From assembly GCA_029862125.1 (NCBI GenBank), contig JAOTXY010000009.1, positions 2,597 through 66,596 of the forward strand: a DNA stretch of 64,000 bases, given 5' to 3'. Below, piece by piece: positions 57,386 to 64,000 of the stretch (positions are counted from its first letter, which is position 1; the number at the start of each line of letters is the position of its first letter). The notes under the pieces are model-generated. The model had not been told where the DNA came from, did not search any database, and saw only the letters and a program-made list of their open reading frames with translations. A program made the translations under genes and the position numbers. This stretch comes from Gammaproteobacteria bacterium (GTDB taxonomy: Bacteria; Pseudomonadota; Gammaproteobacteria; GCA-001735895).

Positions 57386-57559
57386 TATCTATCAGCGGAA
57401 CACGCGAAGCTCCTGCAGATTCCAAATAAAAGCGGACACTCGGTTATTAAGCTTCAGAGTCCGCTGACAATCCAAAACGGACATCGAATATATCCAGGCA
57501 GTTTGTGTCTGGCGTAAATATCCGGTACATAGGTGCGGGGTCGTTTTTGCTAAATCCAC

Positions 57560-58933
57560 TTATCGAATTACGATAAACAACGAACCACCGTTACGATCGA
57601 CTCGAAGCAGGACTGATGTCGTGCTCAGCTTCAATGCAGCTTTTAGCGATTTGATGTCGTATACCTTTCGTTTGTTGGCACCTACTATCACATCACCCTC
57701 ACGTAATCCGCTGTAGGCGGCAGCCGAATTGGGGGCTACCGCAACGACCAGCACCCCTTTGCCATCAGGATTGTTCTCGACGCGCAGCCCTTGTAGAAGC
57801 GGGATTAACTTTTCGACTTGCGCCTGTCGGGATTTAACCTCGCCGACCTTGACTGTCAGCTGCAATGAGTCGCCGTTTCGTAGTATTGTAAGTTGTACTT
57901 TGTCGCCAACTTCCTTGACACCGATTCTACTGCGCAGCTGGGCAGTCGATATGGTCGTTTTACCATCAGCCTCGATGATGATATCACCCAATTTGATTCC
58001 AGCACGGGCAGCAGGAGAGCCTTCAACGACATTGGTCACCAATACCCCGAACTGTCCTTTAGCCAGATCAAAGGCATCCCGAAGCTCGGGGGTTATGTCC
58101 TGGATTCCAACACCAATTTGCCCACGCCTGACTTCGCCATGCTCGATTATCTGTCGCATGCTTACCTTTGCCATGTTTATTGGAATCGCAAACCCAATAC
58201 CAATATTACCCCCCGCAGGCGAGATAATTGCGGTATTGATGCCCACCAGCTCACCCTTTAGATTGACGAGTGCACCCCCAGAGTTACCTGGGTTGATCGA
58301 TGCATCGGTTTGAATAAAATTTTCATATCCCTCGATGCCAAGACCGCTACGCCCGAGTGCACTAACAATGCCGGTGGTTACGGTCTGCCCCAATCCGAAT
58401 GGATTACCGATAGCGACGACGAAATCGCCGACTTCCAGCAGGCTCGAATCAGCAATCCTGGTCTCGGTTAAATCATCGGCATCAATTTCGAGTATCGCGA
58501 TGTCAAGTTCGGGGTCGGTTCCGACTATCTTGGCCTCATAATTCCGGCCGTCGACCAAAGATACGTGCACTTCATCAGCGTTCCTGACAACGTGATAATT
58601 GGTCATCACGATTCCATCACCCGCACTGACAATAACCCCGGAACCAGCACTCTGCTGGCGCTTGCGTGGCACTTGCTGCTCCGGTTGCGATTGATCTGGA
58701 ATATCAAAAAATTTGCGAAAAAAAGGATCATTCAATAATGGGTTGTAGCTGGACTCGCGTGTTGAGTAAGTCGAAATATTAACCACAGCAGGATTGACCT
58801 GCTTGAGCATCGGCGCTAACGAGGGGAAAGGCCTGCCCTGAGCGTCCGTGCCTGGAAGAACAGCCTGTGCCATCTGACAGGTCAGCATGAGCAGTAAAAA
58901 TAAAAATAACGGATGAGTTTGAATTTTTATCAT
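57560..58933 (-). CDS. periplasmic serine endoprotease DegP/DegQ/MucD family (trypsin domain + two PDZ domains)
   Basis: 457 aa. Signal peptide, catalytic triad regions (NYHVV..., DIAILEI, GNSGGALV), two C-terminal PDZ domains. Confidence 0.85.
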   Translation of the reverse strand: MIKIQTHPLFLFLLLMLTCQMAQAVLPGTDAQGRPFPSLAPMLKQVNPAVVNISTYSTRESSYNPLLNDPFFRKFFDIPDQSQPEQQVPRKRQQSAGSGVIVSAGDGIVMTNYHVVRNADEVHVSLVDGRNYEAKIVGTDPELDIAILEIDADDLTETRIADSSLLEVGDFVVAIGNPFGLGQTVTTGIVSALGRSGLGIEGYENFIQTDASINPGNSGGALVNLKGELVGINTAIISPAGGNIGIGFAIPINMAKVSMRQIIEHGEVRRGQIGVGIQDITPELRDAFDLAKGQFGVLVTNVVEGSPAARAGIKLGDIIIEADGKTTISTAQLRSRIGVKEVGDKVQLTILRNGDSLQLTVKVGEVKSRQAQVEKLIPLLQGLRVENNPDGKGVLVVAVAPNSAAAYSGLREGDVIVGANKRKVYDIKSLKAALKLSTTSVLLRVDRNGGSLFIVIR

Positions 58934-59006
58934 TACAATCTCCTATATTTTCAGCAACACCCAAGGGCTGACCAATACAAGGCCAGCCCTGTTCTTCAAT
59001 TATGAT

Positions 59007-59585
59007 CTACGAATTAATTGATATACGTTTTACCTCCTGATTCACGGTTTCACGACGGGGAATTTCAAGTCTCAATACGCCCTTATCAAGGTTAGCCTTG
59101 ATTTCATCAGCTATGGCGTCATCCGGCAGTGCCAGGGTCCGTTGAAATGATCCATAGCTGCGTTCGACACGATAATAATGCTTATCTTTATCTTCACTGC
59201 GCTCCTCCTTCTCCCCCTTAATGAGCAAAACATCATCCTTTAGCTCGAGCGACAGATCGGATTCAGTCAGGCCTGGTACATCGAGGCTGATCTCGTAACA
59301 GTTCGCATCACCCGATACATCAATTTGCGGTCGATAAAAATTTGACAGTCGTGCACCAGGTAAACCCATGGATTCCAGATTTGAAGCCAGCGATGGCATA
59401 CCGAACGACTTGAATGCATCGTCAAACCAGCGATCCATATTACGGTGCAGGCTCATCAGGGAACCTGGGCCCGCCTGTGGCAAGTTTTCAACTTCGCTGC
59501 GGCTAACCGGAATTTGGTTTCCCTTGCCAGCACCATTTTCCTCGTGTTTGAACCAGTTCCAGGGTTTAAGGTTTTCTAAGTTCAT
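59007..59585 (-). CDS. Hsp20/alpha-crystallin family small heat-shock protein
   Basis: 192 aa. Alpha-crystallin domain (DVSGDANCYEISLDVPGLTESDLSLELKDDVLLIKGEK...) and C-terminal I-x-I-like motif. Confidence 0.85.
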   Translation of the reverse strand: MNLENLKPWNWFKHEENGAGKGNQIPVSRSEVENLPQAGPGSLMSLHRNMDRWFDDAFKSFGMPSLASNLESMGLPGARLSNFYRPQIDVSGDANCYEISLDVPGLTESDLSLELKDDVLLIKGEKEERSEDKDKHYYRVERSYGSFQRTLALPDDAIADEIKANLDKGVLRLEIPRRETVNQEVKRISINS

Positions 59586-59652
59586 GTCAGTCTCCTGAAT
59601 AATTGCATATAAATTGGTGCCGCCTCGATAGAACGGCGTTTATCCTCATTTT

Positions 59653-59680
59653 ATTTAAGGTTAAGTAGGCAACTTTCAAG
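59653..59680 (-). promoter_or_regulatory. candidate sigma-32 (RpoH) heat-shock promoter for the hsp20 gene
   Basis: Minus strand reads CTTGAAA-(13 nt)-CCTTAAAT: perfect sigma-32 -35 consensus, partial -10 (CCCCATNT-like), about 65 nt upstream of the hsp20 ATG. Confidence 0.35.
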
Positions 59681-59776
59681 ACAGGGAAATTGACCCAGGT
59701 CAAATTCAAACCATATATCGATCAGTTCCCAAAAGTGGCCGCGTCATACGAGTAAAAATAGCTATTATCTTAATAG

Positions 59777-60304
59777 CTACTTGACGGCGATACAGGTGCA
59801 GGGTGCACGGTTTGCTACCTTGTGCGATACACTGCCAAGGAACAGACCTTTTAAATCGTTTAATCCACGTGAACCCATAATCACGCAGTCAATTTTTTCC
59901 TCATCGATACATTTCAGAATTCTATCGGCGGGATCACCAACTTCGAGACGGGCATCGACATTTTCAATGCCATTTCCCTCTGCAAGGCCTTTTGCTCCGT
60001 CAATGACATGGCGGCCTACCTCGATCAGTAACCGCGGTGATATCCCTGAATCCTGGAAGGCGGAATCCGTAGCCACGGTGATTCTATAGTCCATCGATCT
60101 CAAGCGTTCTATTTCGGTATTGACATGCGGTGCCAGTCCCTCAATTTCAGCAAACTGCTGCAGAGCGTCGATATTTTCAGAACGATGAGGTACGTGCAAT
60201 AGGACAAGCTCCGCATCGTATTTTTTAGCCATATCAATTGCCAGATCGAGTGCTTTGTGTGCATGATCTGAACCGTCGGTGGGACATAGTATCTTGTTAA
60301 ACAT
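59777..60304 (-). CDS. universal stress protein (UspA family)
   Basis: 175 aa. MFNKILCPTDGSDHAHKALDLAIDMAKKYDAELVLLHV ... C-terminal ATP-binding-type motif GSRGLNDLKGLFLGSVSHKV. Confidence 0.8.
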   Translation of the reverse strand: MFNKILCPTDGSDHAHKALDLAIDMAKKYDAELVLLHVPHRSENIDALQQFAEIEGLAPHVNTEIERLRSMDYRITVATDSAFQDSGISPRLLIEVGRHVIDGAKGLAEGNGIENVDARLEVGDPADRILKCIDEEKIDCVIMGSRGLNDLKGLFLGSVSHKVANRAPCTCIAVK

Positions 60305-60405
60305 GATAGGCCTCCGTAATATTCACCAAACCAAAAAAGTCACTTTACCCTGATAGCAATTTGGCATATTGACGCAGCTCAACGAGGATAAATTTATAAG
60401 CAAAT

Positions 60406-60495
60406 GTCCGCTTCTGGCTGAAGATTGCCGCTTGGCGATTACCTACAAGCGTCCGTTCTTGAGAGATGGCAGGCGTAGCGAGTGGTTTGATATTA
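60406..60495. repeat. cassette-associated ~90-bp repeat, copy A
   Basis: gtccgcttctggctgaag...gcgtccgtt...ggcaggcgtagcgagtgg aligns with copies B-D. Its right end overlaps the stop of the DUF4177-like ORF. A GTTGAGC (GTTRRRY) box lies at 60377-60383 on the minus strand. Confidence 0.55.
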
Positions 60496-60684
60496 GTCTA
60501 GTGGCCGAGTTATCTCCTCTGTTTCATCAATCTCTTTTGCGATGACGCTAGTATGGACATGCATACCATCGAATGCATCCGTGCGTCCGGCGCGAGACCA
60601 TCCATTTGATTCATAATAATTGATTTGCTCCTCAAGTTTGGTGATAGATAGGCACCGCAGTACTTTATATTCTATCCTGCTCAT
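60493..60684 (-). CDS. DUF4177-like small protein (63 aa), candidate cassette ORF
   Basis: IEYKVLRCL...LEEQINYYESNGWS resembles the DUF4177 pattern (EYK ... LNxxGxxGWEL). The C-terminal codons lie inside repeat copy A. Confidence 0.4.
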   Translation of the reverse strand: MSRIEYKVLRCLSITKLEEQINYYESNGWSRAGRTDAFDGMHVHTSVIAKEIDETEEITRPLD

Positions 60685-60919
60685 CTGTATCTTGGGTGAT
60701 TATTGATTTTGAAAACCTACCATCTTTGTCGGGTATGGACCTGATTGCGGCTCTTTGGTCACGAAAACATGATATTTTGTTCAGCTTAGAATTGTTGTGA
60801 ACAAGATCAAGCCCAGAGTCACCTATGACAAGTACCTTGTGAATATCTATGACCAGTAATCTAGGAGACTTTCGTAAGCCTCCCCATTATGGCAACAGTT
60901 CAAAACTAAAATTTTAGGC

Positions 60920-60990
60920 GTCTGCTTCTGGCCGTTCTCGGAAGCCTGAATAGCATTTTTCAGCGTCTCCTTTGGAGAAAACAGACGCTC
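60920..60990. repeat. cassette-associated repeat, copy B
   Basis: gtctgcttctggccg...gcctgaat...cagcgtctcctttggagaaaacagacgc aligns with copies C and D. Preceded by TTAGGC (60915-60920). A CGCTAAC box lies at 61150-61156. Confidence 0.55.
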
Positions 60991-61064
60991 AAACCCAAGT
61001 AATCAGCGGCGATTTACGACCCAATATAGATACTCAATCCCGTTCTCGTGGATACTGGTAATAG

Positions 61065-61082
61065 CTGACAGGTAGCTGTCAG
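61065..61082. repeat. perfect 7-bp stem hairpin (CTGACAG-gtag-CTGTCAG) inside the cassette-array spacer
   Basis: Read directly from the sequence. Followed at 61142-61180 by a direct repeat of aactcattcg flanking the CGCTAAC box. Confidence 0.4.
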
Positions 61083-61287
61083 TGCGCGTGAAACATCCAT
61101 TTGCTAGTTACAAATAGAACAGCCCCTACACTTGCAGCGGAAACTCATTCGCTAACATACTTGATGCGAACAACTCATTCGTTTCCTTTTAAATGAAAAT
61201 TTTACTCTTCGCTGTCTTTGTTGAAGTCTTAATTTCGCAAAAACTTATCTATACTTAATTCCTTAAGAGCGAGACCTTGAAATTCGT

Positions 61288-62001
61288 ATGAAGCGCGAGC
61301 TAAGTAACATTAAGGTCTCGATTGAATTAAGTCGAGACCAAATCATTGAGGGATACCTCAATGATGTGACGCCTACGAGTCAAGCGATTTCTGTTGCGAT
61401 ACTCCCAGCTAATCCAGAACTACCGATTCCAGGGACTAATTTAAACCTGCACTTTGAAATTCCTGGGGTAGATCCCCTGGTCCAAATACTCGCGGTGGTT
61501 AAAAAAGCGTGCAAAAAAAGTGGGAAATGTTTTCTCGATCTGGAGGTGATTGACTGGCATGAATTTCATCGCCACTTACCCTCGAATCTTTCCACCAACT
61601 TCAATCGACGGCGCCACTTTCGTGTCAACATGCCACGGCTAAATGAAACTGAAGTCTCGGTGCTGTCGATGCAGAGCGGGCGTTCGCTGAGCGCCACGAT
61701 GCTGGATATCTCTGTAAAAGGCAGCAAATTGTCCTTTGCTTTGGACGAGGCCCCGATTGTCGGCGAAACCCTTCGAATCAAGTTCTGCTTGCCAACGTCC
61801 GAATACCAACTCGAATTGTTGGCAACCGTAACCGGCCGATGGAAGATCAAGAACGCCAGGAATTGTGGCGTTGAATTTAAGGATAACTCACCGGCAGAAG
61901 AGAAACCTTTCTTAGCCCAGCAAAAATTGATATCTCAATACGTCATGGAACGTCAGCGGGAGTTGACCCGAATGGGTATTAAGACCGATTCTCGAGGGTA
62001 G
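61288..62001 (+). CDS. PilZ-domain protein (candidate c-di-GMP receptor), inverted candidate cassette ORF
   Basis: 237 aa. RRRHFRVNM (RxxxR) and DISVKGSKL (D/NxSxxG) motifs about 30 aa apart, as in PilZ domains. N-terminal about 100 aa unknown. Opposite strand to the other array ORFs. Confidence 0.55.
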   Translation: MKRELSNIKVSIELSRDQIIEGYLNDVTPTSQAISVAILPANPELPIPGTNLNLHFEIPGVDPLVQILAVVKKACKKSGKCFLDLEVIDWHEFHRHLPSNLSTNFNRRRHFRVNMPRLNETEVSVLSMQSGRSLSATMLDISVKGSKLSFALDEAPIVGETLRIKFCLPTSEYQLELLATVTGRWKIKNARNCGVEFKDNSPAEEKPFLAQQKLISQYVMERQRELTRMGIKTDSRG

Positions 62002-62252
62002 ATTCAGGTCGGTGAAATCTACAATTATACGATCGACGAATCCTACCTGATCTCAGGTTGTTAATAGACAGTTACACAGTTTTATCTACAGTCTCGCGAA
62101 ACTTGTCAGAATTTCGTAAAACGCTACATTTAGAAAAACCGGGGCAGGCTTAGTGAGCGACTTCCGTTTTCGATATGGACAATTGAGTATTTGATCGATG
62201 GAATGACCGCGACTTCAATCGATTCTCACTGTTAGTCTCCTGTTGATGTCGA

Positions 62253-62341
62253 GGGTCCGTAACTGGCCAAAGATTGCCTCCTGGCTCAGCCAGTTCAGGG
62301 TCTCCTTTGGAGGTAACAGACCTTCGTCATGGAATAATAGT
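62253..62341. repeat. cassette-associated repeat, copy D
   Basis: gggtccgtaactggccaaagattgcctcctg...cagggtctcctttggaggtaacagacc aligns with copies B and C. Preceded by GTTAGTC (62231-62237). GNAT ORF stop lies 24 bp to its right. Confidence 0.55.
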
Positions 62342-62364
62342 GCTCTGAAACTGCCCCAAATTCA

Positions 62365-62964
62365 TTACTCTACTGAACGAATCATCAGCAGGGCATTACC
62401 CTCGTAGTGAATCAACGGATGTGGGACTACTGGTGCTTGGTCCACCACGGTGTATCCCAGCATGTCGTACAGTTTTACAGCTCCCTTGTTCTGTTCAAAT
62501 GCTACCAATGACAAGGTTGTAAATTTGTTTTCCCCGGCTTGCTCGCTGGCTAAATACATTAATCGTGTCCCCAGCCCACGACCGCGATGTTGGGGGTATA
62601 ACGCGACGCCGCATACATACCAACTGTTTGGTTCTTCCAGATAAATGTAAGGTGCGAATACGTTTTCATCATCGGCAGCAGGACGATTTTTCGGATTTCT
62701 CGGTTCGGCCTCAGGCATGCCAAAGGCCAGCAACATACCGGCTACTTCACCATTTATTTCCAGGATAGTTGTATTGTTAAAAGAATAATCCCCATGGGGA
62801 TTTTGATAGGTCTGTTCACCAATGTCGAGTGGGTCACAATGCTCTATCTCGGCTTGTTCATGCCATTCAATTTCGGCAACTCCATCGGATGATATGGCAA
62901 TGAGCTTGGCAATGTCACGGGCATCGTCCCGGGTGGCGGTCCGGATTGCATATTCATGTGACAT
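62365..62964 (-). CDS. GNAT-family N-acetyltransferase, candidate cassette ORF
   Basis: 199 aa. Acetyl-CoA-binding motif region (VALYPQHRGRGLGTRLM) and overall GNAT length. Confidence 0.75.
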   Translation of the reverse strand: MSHEYAIRTATRDDARDIAKLIAISSDGVAEIEWHEQAEIEHCDPLDIGEQTYQNPHGDYSFNNTTILEINGEVAGMLLAFGMPEAEPRNPKNRPAADDENVFAPYIYLEEPNSWYVCGVALYPQHRGRGLGTRLMYLASEQAGENKFTTLSLVAFEQNKGAVKLYDMLGYTVVDQAPVVPHPLIHYEGNALLMIRSVE

Positions 62965-63009
62965 ATCAATTAACTTTGAAAAAAATATTGATTCAGATTA
63001 CCTATATTT

Positions 63010-63217
63010 CGCTAACACATGCGAGATACAGGATAACACCCCAGAGCATATAAAGAATTAACTCATGCTCCTTTGAATCGGTGAATATCGAATCACGACA
63101 TCTGCAAGGGTCCGCTTCTGGCCGAAGGTCGCCTCCTGAATTTCGCTTATGAGCGTCCGTTATCGGGAAGTTGGCAGCGCAGCGCGTGGCCTAGTCCGAC
63201 TGCATGGATTGTTAGGC
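63010..63217 (-). repeat. long (208-bp) attC-like element: CGCTAAC ... repeat core (63108-63205) ... GTTAGGC
   Basis: Terminal 7-mers are near-perfect inverted repeats matching the integron R''/R' consensus (RYYYAAC/GTTRRRY). Inner boxes catgcgag / ctgcatgg are complementary apart from one extra base. On the minus strand the upstream ORF's TGA stop lies 3 bp from GCCTAAC. Confidence 0.5.
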
Positions 63218-63220
63218 CTT

Positions 63221-63718
63221 TCACTCAATTATCTCTATTGATTCAAGGATGCTGCTTACGATGCTCTCACTTGTTCCCGTGAAAGGCCAATGTGAAACAT
63301 GAAGATCTATACAAATACCATCCTTTGCAAAATATGCATGGCCATTTGCCGTTTTGAAAGCTTGACCTTTATATTCTCCTCCAGATTGATGTGTGGCGTA
63401 GTATGCTTTAGTGTCATTTCGGGTTTTAATAGTGGATTTAACCATCACCGGGTTTGCTTGAGCTTTGGCCCAGAAAGCTTTGAAGCATTCCTCATTGTTA
63501 CTCGATGTCTCAATTTCACTGTTAACACTTATCGTAACTCCTGTTTCAACGCTAGATCCCAAGTATCGAATAATCCTATTTCTAGTTTTCATTTCAATAT
63601 TTGTAATCGGAGGTGTCTCTAGCTTCAATGTCCAGTTTTCATTTGGCATGGTAATGTAGGTTTCTTCCGCATTTGCGACGGGGGATAAAACCAACGCCAG
63701 TACAAATAGCAATCTCAT
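63221..63718 (-). CDS. secreted hypothetical protein, candidate cassette ORF
   Basis: 165 aa. Signal peptide MRLLFVLALVLSPVANA; no family recognised. Start preceded by GAGGAAAT 7 bp upstream and directly by a GTTAGGC box. Confidence 0.45.
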   Translation of the reverse strand: MRLLFVLALVLSPVANAEETYITMPNENWTLKLETPPITNIEMKTRNRIIRYLGSSVETGVTISVNSEIETSSNNEECFKAFWAKAQANPVMVKSTIKTRNDTKAYYATHQSGGEYKGQAFKTANGHAYFAKDGICIDLHVSHWPFTGTSESIVSSILESIEIIE

Positions 63719-63734
63719 GGGTATTTCCTCGTGG

Positions 63735-63795
63735 GCCTAACGCCTCGCATCAGCGGTTTGCCGTAGGCAGGTCCGACTGCATGCGCTTGTTATGT
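63735..63795 (-). repeat. 61-bp attC-like recombination site candidate
   Basis: Plus strand: GCCTAAC-gcctc-GCATCAG-(23 nt loop)-CTGCATGC-gctt-GTTATGT, i.e. R''-spacer-L''-loop-L'-spacer-R' with L''/L' complementary except for one extra base. The 3' 25 nt match copy C (gtccgactgcatg..GTTAgG). Confidence 0.55.
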
Positions 63796-63799
63796 GCAT

Positions 63800-64000
63800 T
63801 CAGCTGTTTGGTGAATTTGCACATTTTTCTTTCCCTTCTGAGAATGAGTGTTCCAGTAAGTTAATTTCAAGAACACTGTCTTCCTGTTCGACTCCAGACA
63901 AACAGAACTTGATCTGGTATCTGCCTGTCCACTCTGACCTTATATTTTCTGCAGTTATACCGCCATCATTTGAAATTTTTGTGGTAACGACATGATTTCG
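63800..64000 (-). CDS. 3' end of an ORF that starts beyond the window (candidate next cassette ORF)
   Basis: Minus-strand frame open from 64000 to the TGA at 63800-63802 (…EINLLEHSFSEGKEKCANSPNS*). The stop is 4 bp from the ACATAAC box of the attC-like element. No start codon within the window. Confidence 0.3.
   Translation of the reverse strand, partial: RNHVVTTKISNDGGITAENIRSEWTGRYQIKFCLSGVEQEDSVLEINLLEHSFSEGKEKCANSPNS

Follow-up and report, generated by a model that had tools for sequence, protein, structure and literature searches.

Does a PilZ-domain gene that lies against the direction of its neighbours, between repeated sequences, represent a mobile cassette or an ordinary receptor gene? 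The gene in question occupies positions 61288-62001 of a 64,000-nucleotide (nt) stretch of DNA from a Gammaproteobacteria bacterium (GenBank assembly GCA_029862125.1, contig JAOTXY010000009.1, positions 2,597 to 66,596 of the forward strand; the whole stretch is referred to here as the window), where a first-pass annotation had described it as a cyclic di-GMP (c-di-GMP) receptor-like gene carried as an inverted unit inside an integron cassette array. We consider it probable that the gene encodes an ordinary di-domain PilZ c-di-GMP receptor, has its own conserved upstream region, and forms one module of a strain-variable region partitioned by palindromic repeats. The gene and the parts of its product, with secondary structure and predicted local distance difference test (pLDDT) values from an AlphaFold2 (AF2) model, are as follows.

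61288-62001, + strand: PilZ di-domain open reading frame (ORF), 237 aa, ATG start, TAG stop
61288-61587, + strand: N-terminal beta-barrel, degenerate PilZ, aa 1-100 (AF2 strands E9-87, pLDDT 66-83)
61603-61905, + strand: canonical PilZ domain, aa 106-206, including DISVKG (PF07238, and Foldseek matches to the PilZ domains of Alg44, YcgR and BcsA)
61606-61623, + strand: RRRHFR, c-di-GMP switch in the inter-domain linker (R107, R108, R112), aa 107-112, with R108 and R112 invariant in 31 relatives down to 19% identity
61906-61974, + strand: C-terminal helix, aa 207-229, PFLAQQKLISQY.MERQREL.R.G (AF2 helix 208-228)

The protein was matched by the Pfam PilZ profile PF07238 (E=7.6e-10, 39.5 bits against a gathering cut-off of 22.5, aa 106-206), the profile check that had been proposed for it, and search of the 237 aa against NCBIfam gave no addition above threshold. 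Both PilZ signature motifs named at first reading, RxxxR and DxSxxG, were borne out together with their spacing: DISVKG falls at aa 140-145 (nt 61705-61722), and the gap from R112 to D140 is 28 residues, the PilZ expectation being ~20-30 from RxxxR to (D/N)xSxxG. Every other long ORF in 57.5-64 kb is encoded on the - strand (a DegP-like protease, Hsp20, Usp, a 63-aa ORF, a GNAT acetyltransferase and a 165-aa ORF), and repeats at 60902-61075 and 62235-62340 bracket the PilZ ORF, so that its description as lying on the opposite strand between repeat copies stands. Its non-coding flanks measured ~215-245 nt upstream and ~235-250 nt downstream, close to the 230 and 270 bp first given. GC content falls from ~0.53 to ~0.45 over the final 4 kb of the window, with the PilZ gene at GC 0.48 and a third-position GC content (GC3) of 0.53, as against a core-gene GC3 of 0.57-0.66. 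A PADLOC search of PilZ and three neighbours returned no anti-phage defence match.

Close homologues numbered 12 among 5.8 billion proteins (71-100% identity, all ~237 aa), derived from metagenomes and one "MAG: Gammaproteobacteria bacterium", and a scan of a genome collection found a single species-representative genome holding one. Exhaustive profile search of 1.8 billion representatives retrieved 241 distant relatives, mostly ~240 aa. The RxxxR and DxSxxG positions were invariant in the 12 close and in 31 distant relatives, all 31 of which also matched PF07238, and over these 31 relatives, reaching down to 19% identity, the sole invariant residues were R108, R112, S142 and G145. Since the residues of these two motifs alone are invariant over that range, selection on ligand binding is argued for.

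The N-terminal domain, which had been left as a domain of unknown type, is a second PilZ barrel with lost nucleotide motifs, as seen from its fold, from the N-domains of 16 of 19 remote relatives, which matched PF07238 alone (best E 7.1e-9), and from the family consensus in this domain, RRxxYR...DLSAxGA. In the window protein KRELS stands where RxxxR is expected and NDVTPT where DxSxxG is expected, and its own N-domain aligns to those of the relatives, yet falls below the PF07238 threshold by itself. The AF2 model consists of two beta-barrels and the C-terminal helix, with the strands of the canonical domain spanning residues 123-197 and agreeing with a six-stranded PilZ barrel. Alignment columns K206-G230 are near-invariant among the close family, and the C-terminal helix is the best candidate for an output surface, serving a partner or oligomerisation. 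Foldseek matched the full-length model to PDB structures of MotI/DgrA (5vx6, E 2.8e-8), PP4397 (2gjg/3kyf), PlzD (1yln/2rde), YcgR (5y6f) and MrkH (5kgo), at 11-16% identity, and the protein belongs to the class of tandem or di-domain PilZ proteins described in 10.1101/2020.02.11.943704.

A close likeness is to the YcgR-type receptors (E. coli YcgR, P. putida PP4397/FlgZ, V. cholerae PlzD/VCA0042 and B. subtilis MotI/DgrA), which gave the best full-length structural matches, fall in the same length class (~210-250 aa), and have the same two barrels, RxxxR lying in the linker that joins them and DxSxxG in the second. An arginine directly before RxxxR correlates with binding of dimeric c-di-GMP, PP4397 being an example (10.1101/2020.02.11.943704), and R107 takes this position in the window protein. 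Unlike these receptors, the window protein has no sequence-level match to solved structures, lacks a flagellar gene context (none of the PilZ loci examined adjoins flagellar genes), and has an N-barrel that descends from PilZ proper, the Pfam YcgR/PilZN (YcgR_N) profile matching neither it nor 30 relatives. A degenerate N-terminal PilZ domain followed by a canonical C-terminal one is also the arrangement of K. pneumoniae MrkH and of uncharacterised tandem-PilZ clusters (10.1101/2020.02.11.943704); MrkH differs in being a DNA-binding activator encoded beside its fimbrial target operon, whereas the neighbours of the window gene vary.

By analogy with PP4397, PlzD, YcgR and MotI, the protein would be a cytoplasmic receptor built from a motif-less N-barrel, the linker R107-R108-x-x-x-R112, a canonical barrel carrying D140-x-S142-x-x-G145, and the C-terminal helix, in which c-di-GMP would be clamped by the linker arginines and the DxSxxG strand. 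Because an arginine precedes RxxxR, the ligand is proposed to be bound, probably, as an intercalated dimer. Binding may then reorient the two barrels, and the reoriented barrels, together with the helix, may expose or hide a surface for a partner.

The features of the two spacers around the ORF are listed next.

61040-61287, + strand: upstream block travelling with PilZ, probable promoter or regulatory region, conserved in L008, L011, L017 and L018 despite different neighbours
61065-61082, no strand assigned: perfect 7-bp hairpin CTGACAG-GTAG-CTGTCAG, judged chance
61142-61181, + strand: two exact AACTCATTCG direct repeats around CGCTAAC, with a TTCGC/GCGAA inverted repeat, a possible regulator site
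61248-61259, + strand: -10-like box TCTATACTTAAT, 29-40 nt before the ATG, reading CTATACT here and corresponding to invariant columns C260-T270 of the upstream alignment
62002-62234, no strand assigned: window-specific spacer, 233 nt, unique to this strain, the other PilZ loci sharing a different ~150-nt sequence

In a multiple alignment, ~250 nt upstream were conserved with the PilZ gene across five lineages and in unrelated contexts, the strongest block being an invariant CTATA.TT.AT, at which the homologues read CTATAATTAAT (CTATAAT). For -10 regions that depend on RpoS, PMC11784136 describes the motif CTATACT. Pairwise blastn homology between the window and L008-L018 extended from 61112-61231 to 62006 only, covering the ORF and 60-180 nt upstream. 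Because the upstream block is conserved and carries an invariant -10-like box, the gene is predicted, and likely, to have its own promoter, in agreement with the suggestion made when the spacer was first read. PilZ would then be a self-contained transcription unit, comprising the ~250 nt upstream with their RpoS-resembling -10 box and a direct-repeat block further upstream.

The direct repeat reported earlier around CGCTAAC (61150-61156) is real, with two exact AACTCATTCG copies at 61142-61151 and 61172-61181. The block formed by AACTCATTCG and CGCTAAC is partly conserved at all PilZ loci, including those without any repeats, for which reason CGCTAAC is assigned to the PilZ upstream block. Its identification as an attC R box was ruled out, homologues reading CGCGAAC or CGAGAAC and the box being present even where no repeats are found. 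The perfect hairpin at 61065-61082, to which the first-pass annotation had drawn attention, exists as described and is judged to be chance, since an equal one arose in 18% of spacer shuffles and homologous loci do not retain it. At E<=1, 56-64 kb had no match in Rfam, neither a c-di-GMP riboswitch nor another known RNA being found in the leader. Two weak sigma-70-like + strand matches were seen in the downstream spacer (62002-62234), at 62065-62092 and 62103-62130.

The PilZ unit was present in five lineages, each with wholly different neighbours, which elsewhere comprised MsrA/MsrB with GGACT, a cytochrome b/DHC operon, DUF1326, PhyH, and a cyclase-TPR gene. PilZ homologues of the other lineages were 71-81% identical. 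No synteny was found between PilZ loci, and the other proteins tested from 49.5-64 kb had no convincing relative there, giving only matches of 24-33% identity. Repeats flank PilZ in the window, L017 and L018, and in all three the polarity of PilZ equals that of the repeat elements; the gene is thus not one that occupies the same repeat-free locus in all relatives. Cyclase-TPR genes lie convergent with PilZ in L008-L010 and L018 (L008:11427-13214, L018:3945-5833), and either a functional link to PilZ or signalling-rich arrays would be possible sources of this arrangement.

The repeats themselves were first recognised as four direct copies near 60406, 60920, 62255 and 63110, and with extra copies from related contigs the full unit was recognised as a ~125-nt imperfect palindrome. 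A profile of the element family was searched with nhmmer, and hits in the window were confined to 57429-63169; all five fall in the last 6.6 kb, and the first 57 kb has no copy.

57429-57497: repeat element, weak profile match
60379-60464, + strand: IG1, partial repeat element between the Usp gene and the 63-aa ORF
60902-61075, + strand: IG2, complete palindromic element upstream of PilZ (nhmmer E=1.3e-35, profile positions 29-190)
62235-62340, + strand: IG3, partial element (5' two-thirds) downstream of PilZ, beside the GNAT stop codon (nhmmer E=3e-19)
63082-63219, + strand: IG4, hybrid site, the element 5' half (63082-63169) joined to a half attC GTCCGACTGCATGGATTGTTAGGC (63193-63219) that directly adjoins the stop codon of the 165-aa ORF

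The element consensus reads GAGtGTCCGcTccTGGCCGAAGattGCC...TTTGAGCGTCTCCTTTGGAGAAAACAGACgCTCAAA...TCAGCGGCgAtaAaCGACCCAAa.cAGACaCTCA, in which the 9-mer GAGYGTCYG occurs, nested, as two direct and then two inverted copies per element. The central loop is highly conserved (CCTTTGGAGAAAAC) and the ends are sharp (YGAGYGTCCG and CRGACACTC). Because RNAalifold gave no consensus structure on 100 copies, a hand-built structure was tested on them, showing 69% of cells complementary in the proposed pairing, compared with 33-39% with slid partners, and two-sided changes in the arms slightly above shuffles (3/500). The first ~105-120 nt of each repeat, folded as single-stranded DNA, did no better than shuffles; this test is misleading because the full element is ~125 nt long and IG2 alone is complete in the window.

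A degenerate pattern of 22 nt, taken from the central hairpin, matched at least 119 marine-sediment metagenome contigs (those found by the pattern being designated L022-L140), compared with a chance expectation that we estimate at ~4 contigs. These contigs held 304 copies, in arrays of up to 9-13, with a median copy spacing of 1.1 kb and adjacent copies co-oriented 174:12; single copies were also seen in long contigs. The longest ORF of the inter-repeat segments divided 86:53 by polarity, 53 of 139 (38%) having the polarity of PilZ, the four flanking-polarity classes counted 62, 62, 43 and 25, and operons of 4-5 genes were found between copies. Homologous modules kept their polarity relative to the elements in 66:8 cases, against an overall ratio of 294:209. 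Mixed polarity is therefore usual in these arrays, another gene of PilZ polarity follows just past the window end, and the inverted orientation that had been singled out as special is not: PilZ, always in element polarity, follows a common arrangement and is no exceptional inversion. Nor is a second-messenger effector unusual here, as had been thought of a mobile one, because signalling genes are common in the arrays. Paralogues of a class III adenylate/guanylate cyclase-TPR protein adjoin elements in 15 loci (including L008, L018, L022, L053, L054, L067, L068 and L070).

Comparison of closely related contigs placed strain junctions at the repeats. Over 60918-64000 L003 matches the window at 99.8% identity and then switches inside IG2, between GTCYG-NNNN and TGGCCG, diverging at ~60920-60931 through recombination or else a chimeric assembly at the repeat; past the switch (L003:4245-4872) a gene for an FKBP-type isomerase replaces the 63-aa ORF and Usp. 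L143, with 98.8% identity along 11.7 kb, diverges at 60394, the start of IG1. The Usp gene with ~90 nt upstream (window 59772-60436) recurs at 75-81% nt identity in L098:5961-6580, L121:210-833 and L074:974-1634, being bounded by elements, and always antisense to them, in four different arrays. In L143:8892-15940, DegP-Hsp20-Usp was seen twice in tandem (copies ~95% alike) with a CBS-domain gene between, where the window (57560-60394) has one copy.

For the integron question, 56-65 kb was searched on both strands with an R-box/hairpin scan, which gave one canonical attC in 9 kb.

63735-63795, - strand: genuine attC, with the 134-aa ORF on one side and the 165-aa ORF on the other (its top strand reads ACATAAC...GTTAGGC, and the R''-L'' arm has two extra bases)

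The polarity of this site is correct relative to the 134-aa and 165-aa ORFs, and it is a member of a canonical attC family (YCTAACGCCTCGCATCAGCGG...GTCCGACTGCATGCGYTTGTTAKG; pattern GCCTAAC GCCTCGCATCAGCGG ... GTCCGACTGCATGCGYTT GTTAKG) that occurred 14 times in the element contigs, always co-oriented with the elements (for example L024:1500-1575, L030:6270-6345 and L131:790-865). Several hybrid copies, among them window 63082-63219, carry an attC or half attC in place of the element 3' arm, and the ordinary 3' arm shares ATCAGCGG with attC. RYYYAAC and GTTRRRY boxes were absent from both repeats flanking PilZ and from the element ends. A tblastn search with IntI1 was negative in the window, in a 1.2-kb extension and in 119 contigs (680 kb), the head of the array being outside the data, and the sole tyrosine recombinase encountered was an IS91-associated one in L047. 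There, at L047:1699-3806 and directly after an element, a tyrosine recombinase (Phage_integrase and SAM-like domain) stands immediately ahead of an IS91-type Y2 transposase, and this recombinase is not of the integron integrase kind. Three small ORFs of the - strand have their ends within 5-25 nt of a repeat. A literature search on PilZ in integron cassettes found nothing relevant.

The array is accordingly not a classical integron, yet it is related to integrons because of its true attC family, its hybrid copies and the ATCAGCGG common to attC and the 3' arm. Inverse-orientation, promoter-bearing cassettes occur in sedentary chromosomal integrons, for instance the toxin-antitoxin cassettes of the Vibrio superintegron. 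The PilZ gene resembles them in standing alone, with upstream DNA of its own, against the direction of the small ORFs beside it, and bracketed by co-oriented repeats in a low-GC variable array with a true attC; it differs from them in that its bracketing repeats are not attC, no IntI was found, and mixed polarity is the rule. REP/REPIN sequences and extragenic palindromes have in common with the elements the ~125-nt imperfect palindromes with nested inverted 9-12-mers, the intergenic placement, and the hundreds of copies in the environment sampled, and differ in that the window-type elements are co-oriented, clustered in a variable region and hybridised with attC.

In the explanation we prefer, the PilZ unit would be a module of a low-GC strain-variable region starting past a TauE-like gene at ~57.4 kb and split by co-oriented elements, whose modules would be rearranged between strains and lineages in either polarity, the elements being related to a less numerous set of true attC sites and sharing their orientation. 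Mobilisation of modules via the repeats is what we infer from the junctions and the differing neighbours, and that the PilZ gene is itself a shuffled module is plausible. Several results weigh against this explanation. Confidence in the AF2 model is moderate (pLDDT 64, linker <50), and a family-profile sequence search of the PDB matched no solved structure. The neighbours of PilZ differ at every locus, so that no partner or pathway can be read from them, and a crude regular-expression scan of the window found no GGDEF or EAL motifs. Upstream of PilZ a sigma-70 consensus scan found no promoter, missing the -10-like box because there is no -35 hexamer, and the Shine-Dalgarno sequence is weak. 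With regard to movement, no recombinase acting on the elements was identified, the 66:8 concordance may partly reflect residual synteny of related genomes, PilZ loci L011-L016 have no elements nearby, and homology to other PilZ loci ends ~10 nt past the stop codon, not at an element. The negative GGDEF/EAL scan of the window would suit a PilZ domain that has nothing to do with c-di-GMP and acts as a non-binding adaptor like XCC6012 or Pseudomonas PilZ, as would the lost motifs of the N-terminal barrel and the existence of PilZ proteins that do not bind c-di-GMP (10.1101/2020.02.11.943704); with both C-terminal binding motifs intact, and R108, R112, S142 and G145 the only residues kept throughout the family, we regard this as very improbable.

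The last two points on movement are better suited to an ordinary lineage-specific gene that was never mobilised, lying among REP/REPIN- or PATE-like selfish repeats whose strand-specific insertions go into the AT-rich intergenic DNA of a region prone to recombination, with synteny lost between distant genomes. The PilZ lineages are indeed distant, as judged from homologues only 71-81% identical, and the elements, imperfect palindromes lying outside genes and built with nested inverted repeats, flank genes of either polarity and whole operons and also occur singly in long contigs. Co-orientation at 174:12 would be expected from strand-specific single-strand transposition, a mode established for the IS200/IS605 family. 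Such repeats would not readily account for an absence from the first 57 kb beside five copies in the last 6.6 kb, for junctions at elements between strains 95-99.8% identical, for a Usp module held between elements in four arrays at fixed polarity, or for hybrids and constant co-orientation with true attC, and the arm covariation, weakly above shuffles (3/500), also speaks against them; we take this explanation to be possible, at well below even chances. Lower still stands the reading of PilZ as a classical inverse-orientation integron cassette captured with its promoter, in which the flanking repeats are attC and IntI lies beyond the window. The genuine attC of correct polarity, the half attC abutting the 165-aa stop, the co-oriented repeats with 1.1-kb median spacing, the three small ORFs ending next to a repeat, the GC drop, and the difference of L003 exactly at a repeat all fit it, and the part of the earlier integron proposal that stands is this co-orientation together with true attC and hybrid sites. 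The rest of that proposal is not supported: the repeats flanking PilZ lack RYYYAAC/GTTRRRY and their conservation begins abruptly at YGAGYGTCCG, a single attC was found in 9 kb, IntI was not found in the window, its 1.2-kb extension or 680 kb of related contigs, inverted segments at 38% and operons of 4-5 genes are unlike integron arrays, and the L003/window junction falls ~15 nt inside the element (GTCYG-NNNN / TGGCCG), not at a GTT triplet. We therefore find a classical cassette improbable. Somewhat better placed than it, and still rather unlikely, is the bolder proposal that the ~125-nt elements are attC-derived recombination sites, belonging to an integron-like but non-canonical cassette system of uncultured Gammaproteobacteria from marine sediments; such a system would shuffle self-transcribed modules of either polarity, operons included, with crossover between GTCYG-NNNN and TGGCCG, making the PilZ unit a truly mobile effector cassette.

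As a protein, the product of the window gene represents a new small clade (12 close members) within a large and mostly uncharacterised di-domain or tandem PilZ group, which is useful for annotation and unsurprising. Its gene belongs to the flexible gene pool of a sediment lineage that is abundant and uncultured, in which many modules are signalling or stress genes (PilZ, class III cyclase-TPR, Usp). The repeat system, which may be either a cassette system derived from attC or a selfish repeat like the REPINs, is the more interesting object, and the question of module mobility belongs to the array and not to the PilZ ORF. If modules move, the gene pool would be organised by repeats that are neither classical attC nor classical REP, yet linked to both, signalling components, c-di-GMP effectors and cyclases among them, would be swapped in the manner of integron cassettes, and the cassette rules (promoterless, single ORF, uniform polarity) would not be general.

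Sequence beyond the window was available from L003. At L003:1-160 (~1.1 kb past the window end), the C-terminus of an IS30-family transposase was found, 74-78% identical to the ISCfr4-type and accompanied by an IS30-like terminal repeat. This insertion sequence (IS) abuts a palindromic element cut after ...GTCCGCTTATGGC, and a remnant lies at the same position in L017:3330-3385; the IS30-family element seems to target the palindromic element. The possibility that the repeats are miniature inverted-repeat transposable elements of an IS30-like element was ruled out, the IS ends (TGCGGTTTCAATTGGTCGACGC...) being unlike the element ends and the IS sitting inside the element after TGGC. The next-but-one gene past the window end (L003:245-634, ~64543-64932, + strand) encodes a 129-aa hydrophobic protein with no Pfam hit, in the polarity of PilZ, and has ahead of it a complete element that bears the same 3' extension (AATCAGCGGCGATTTACGACCCAA).

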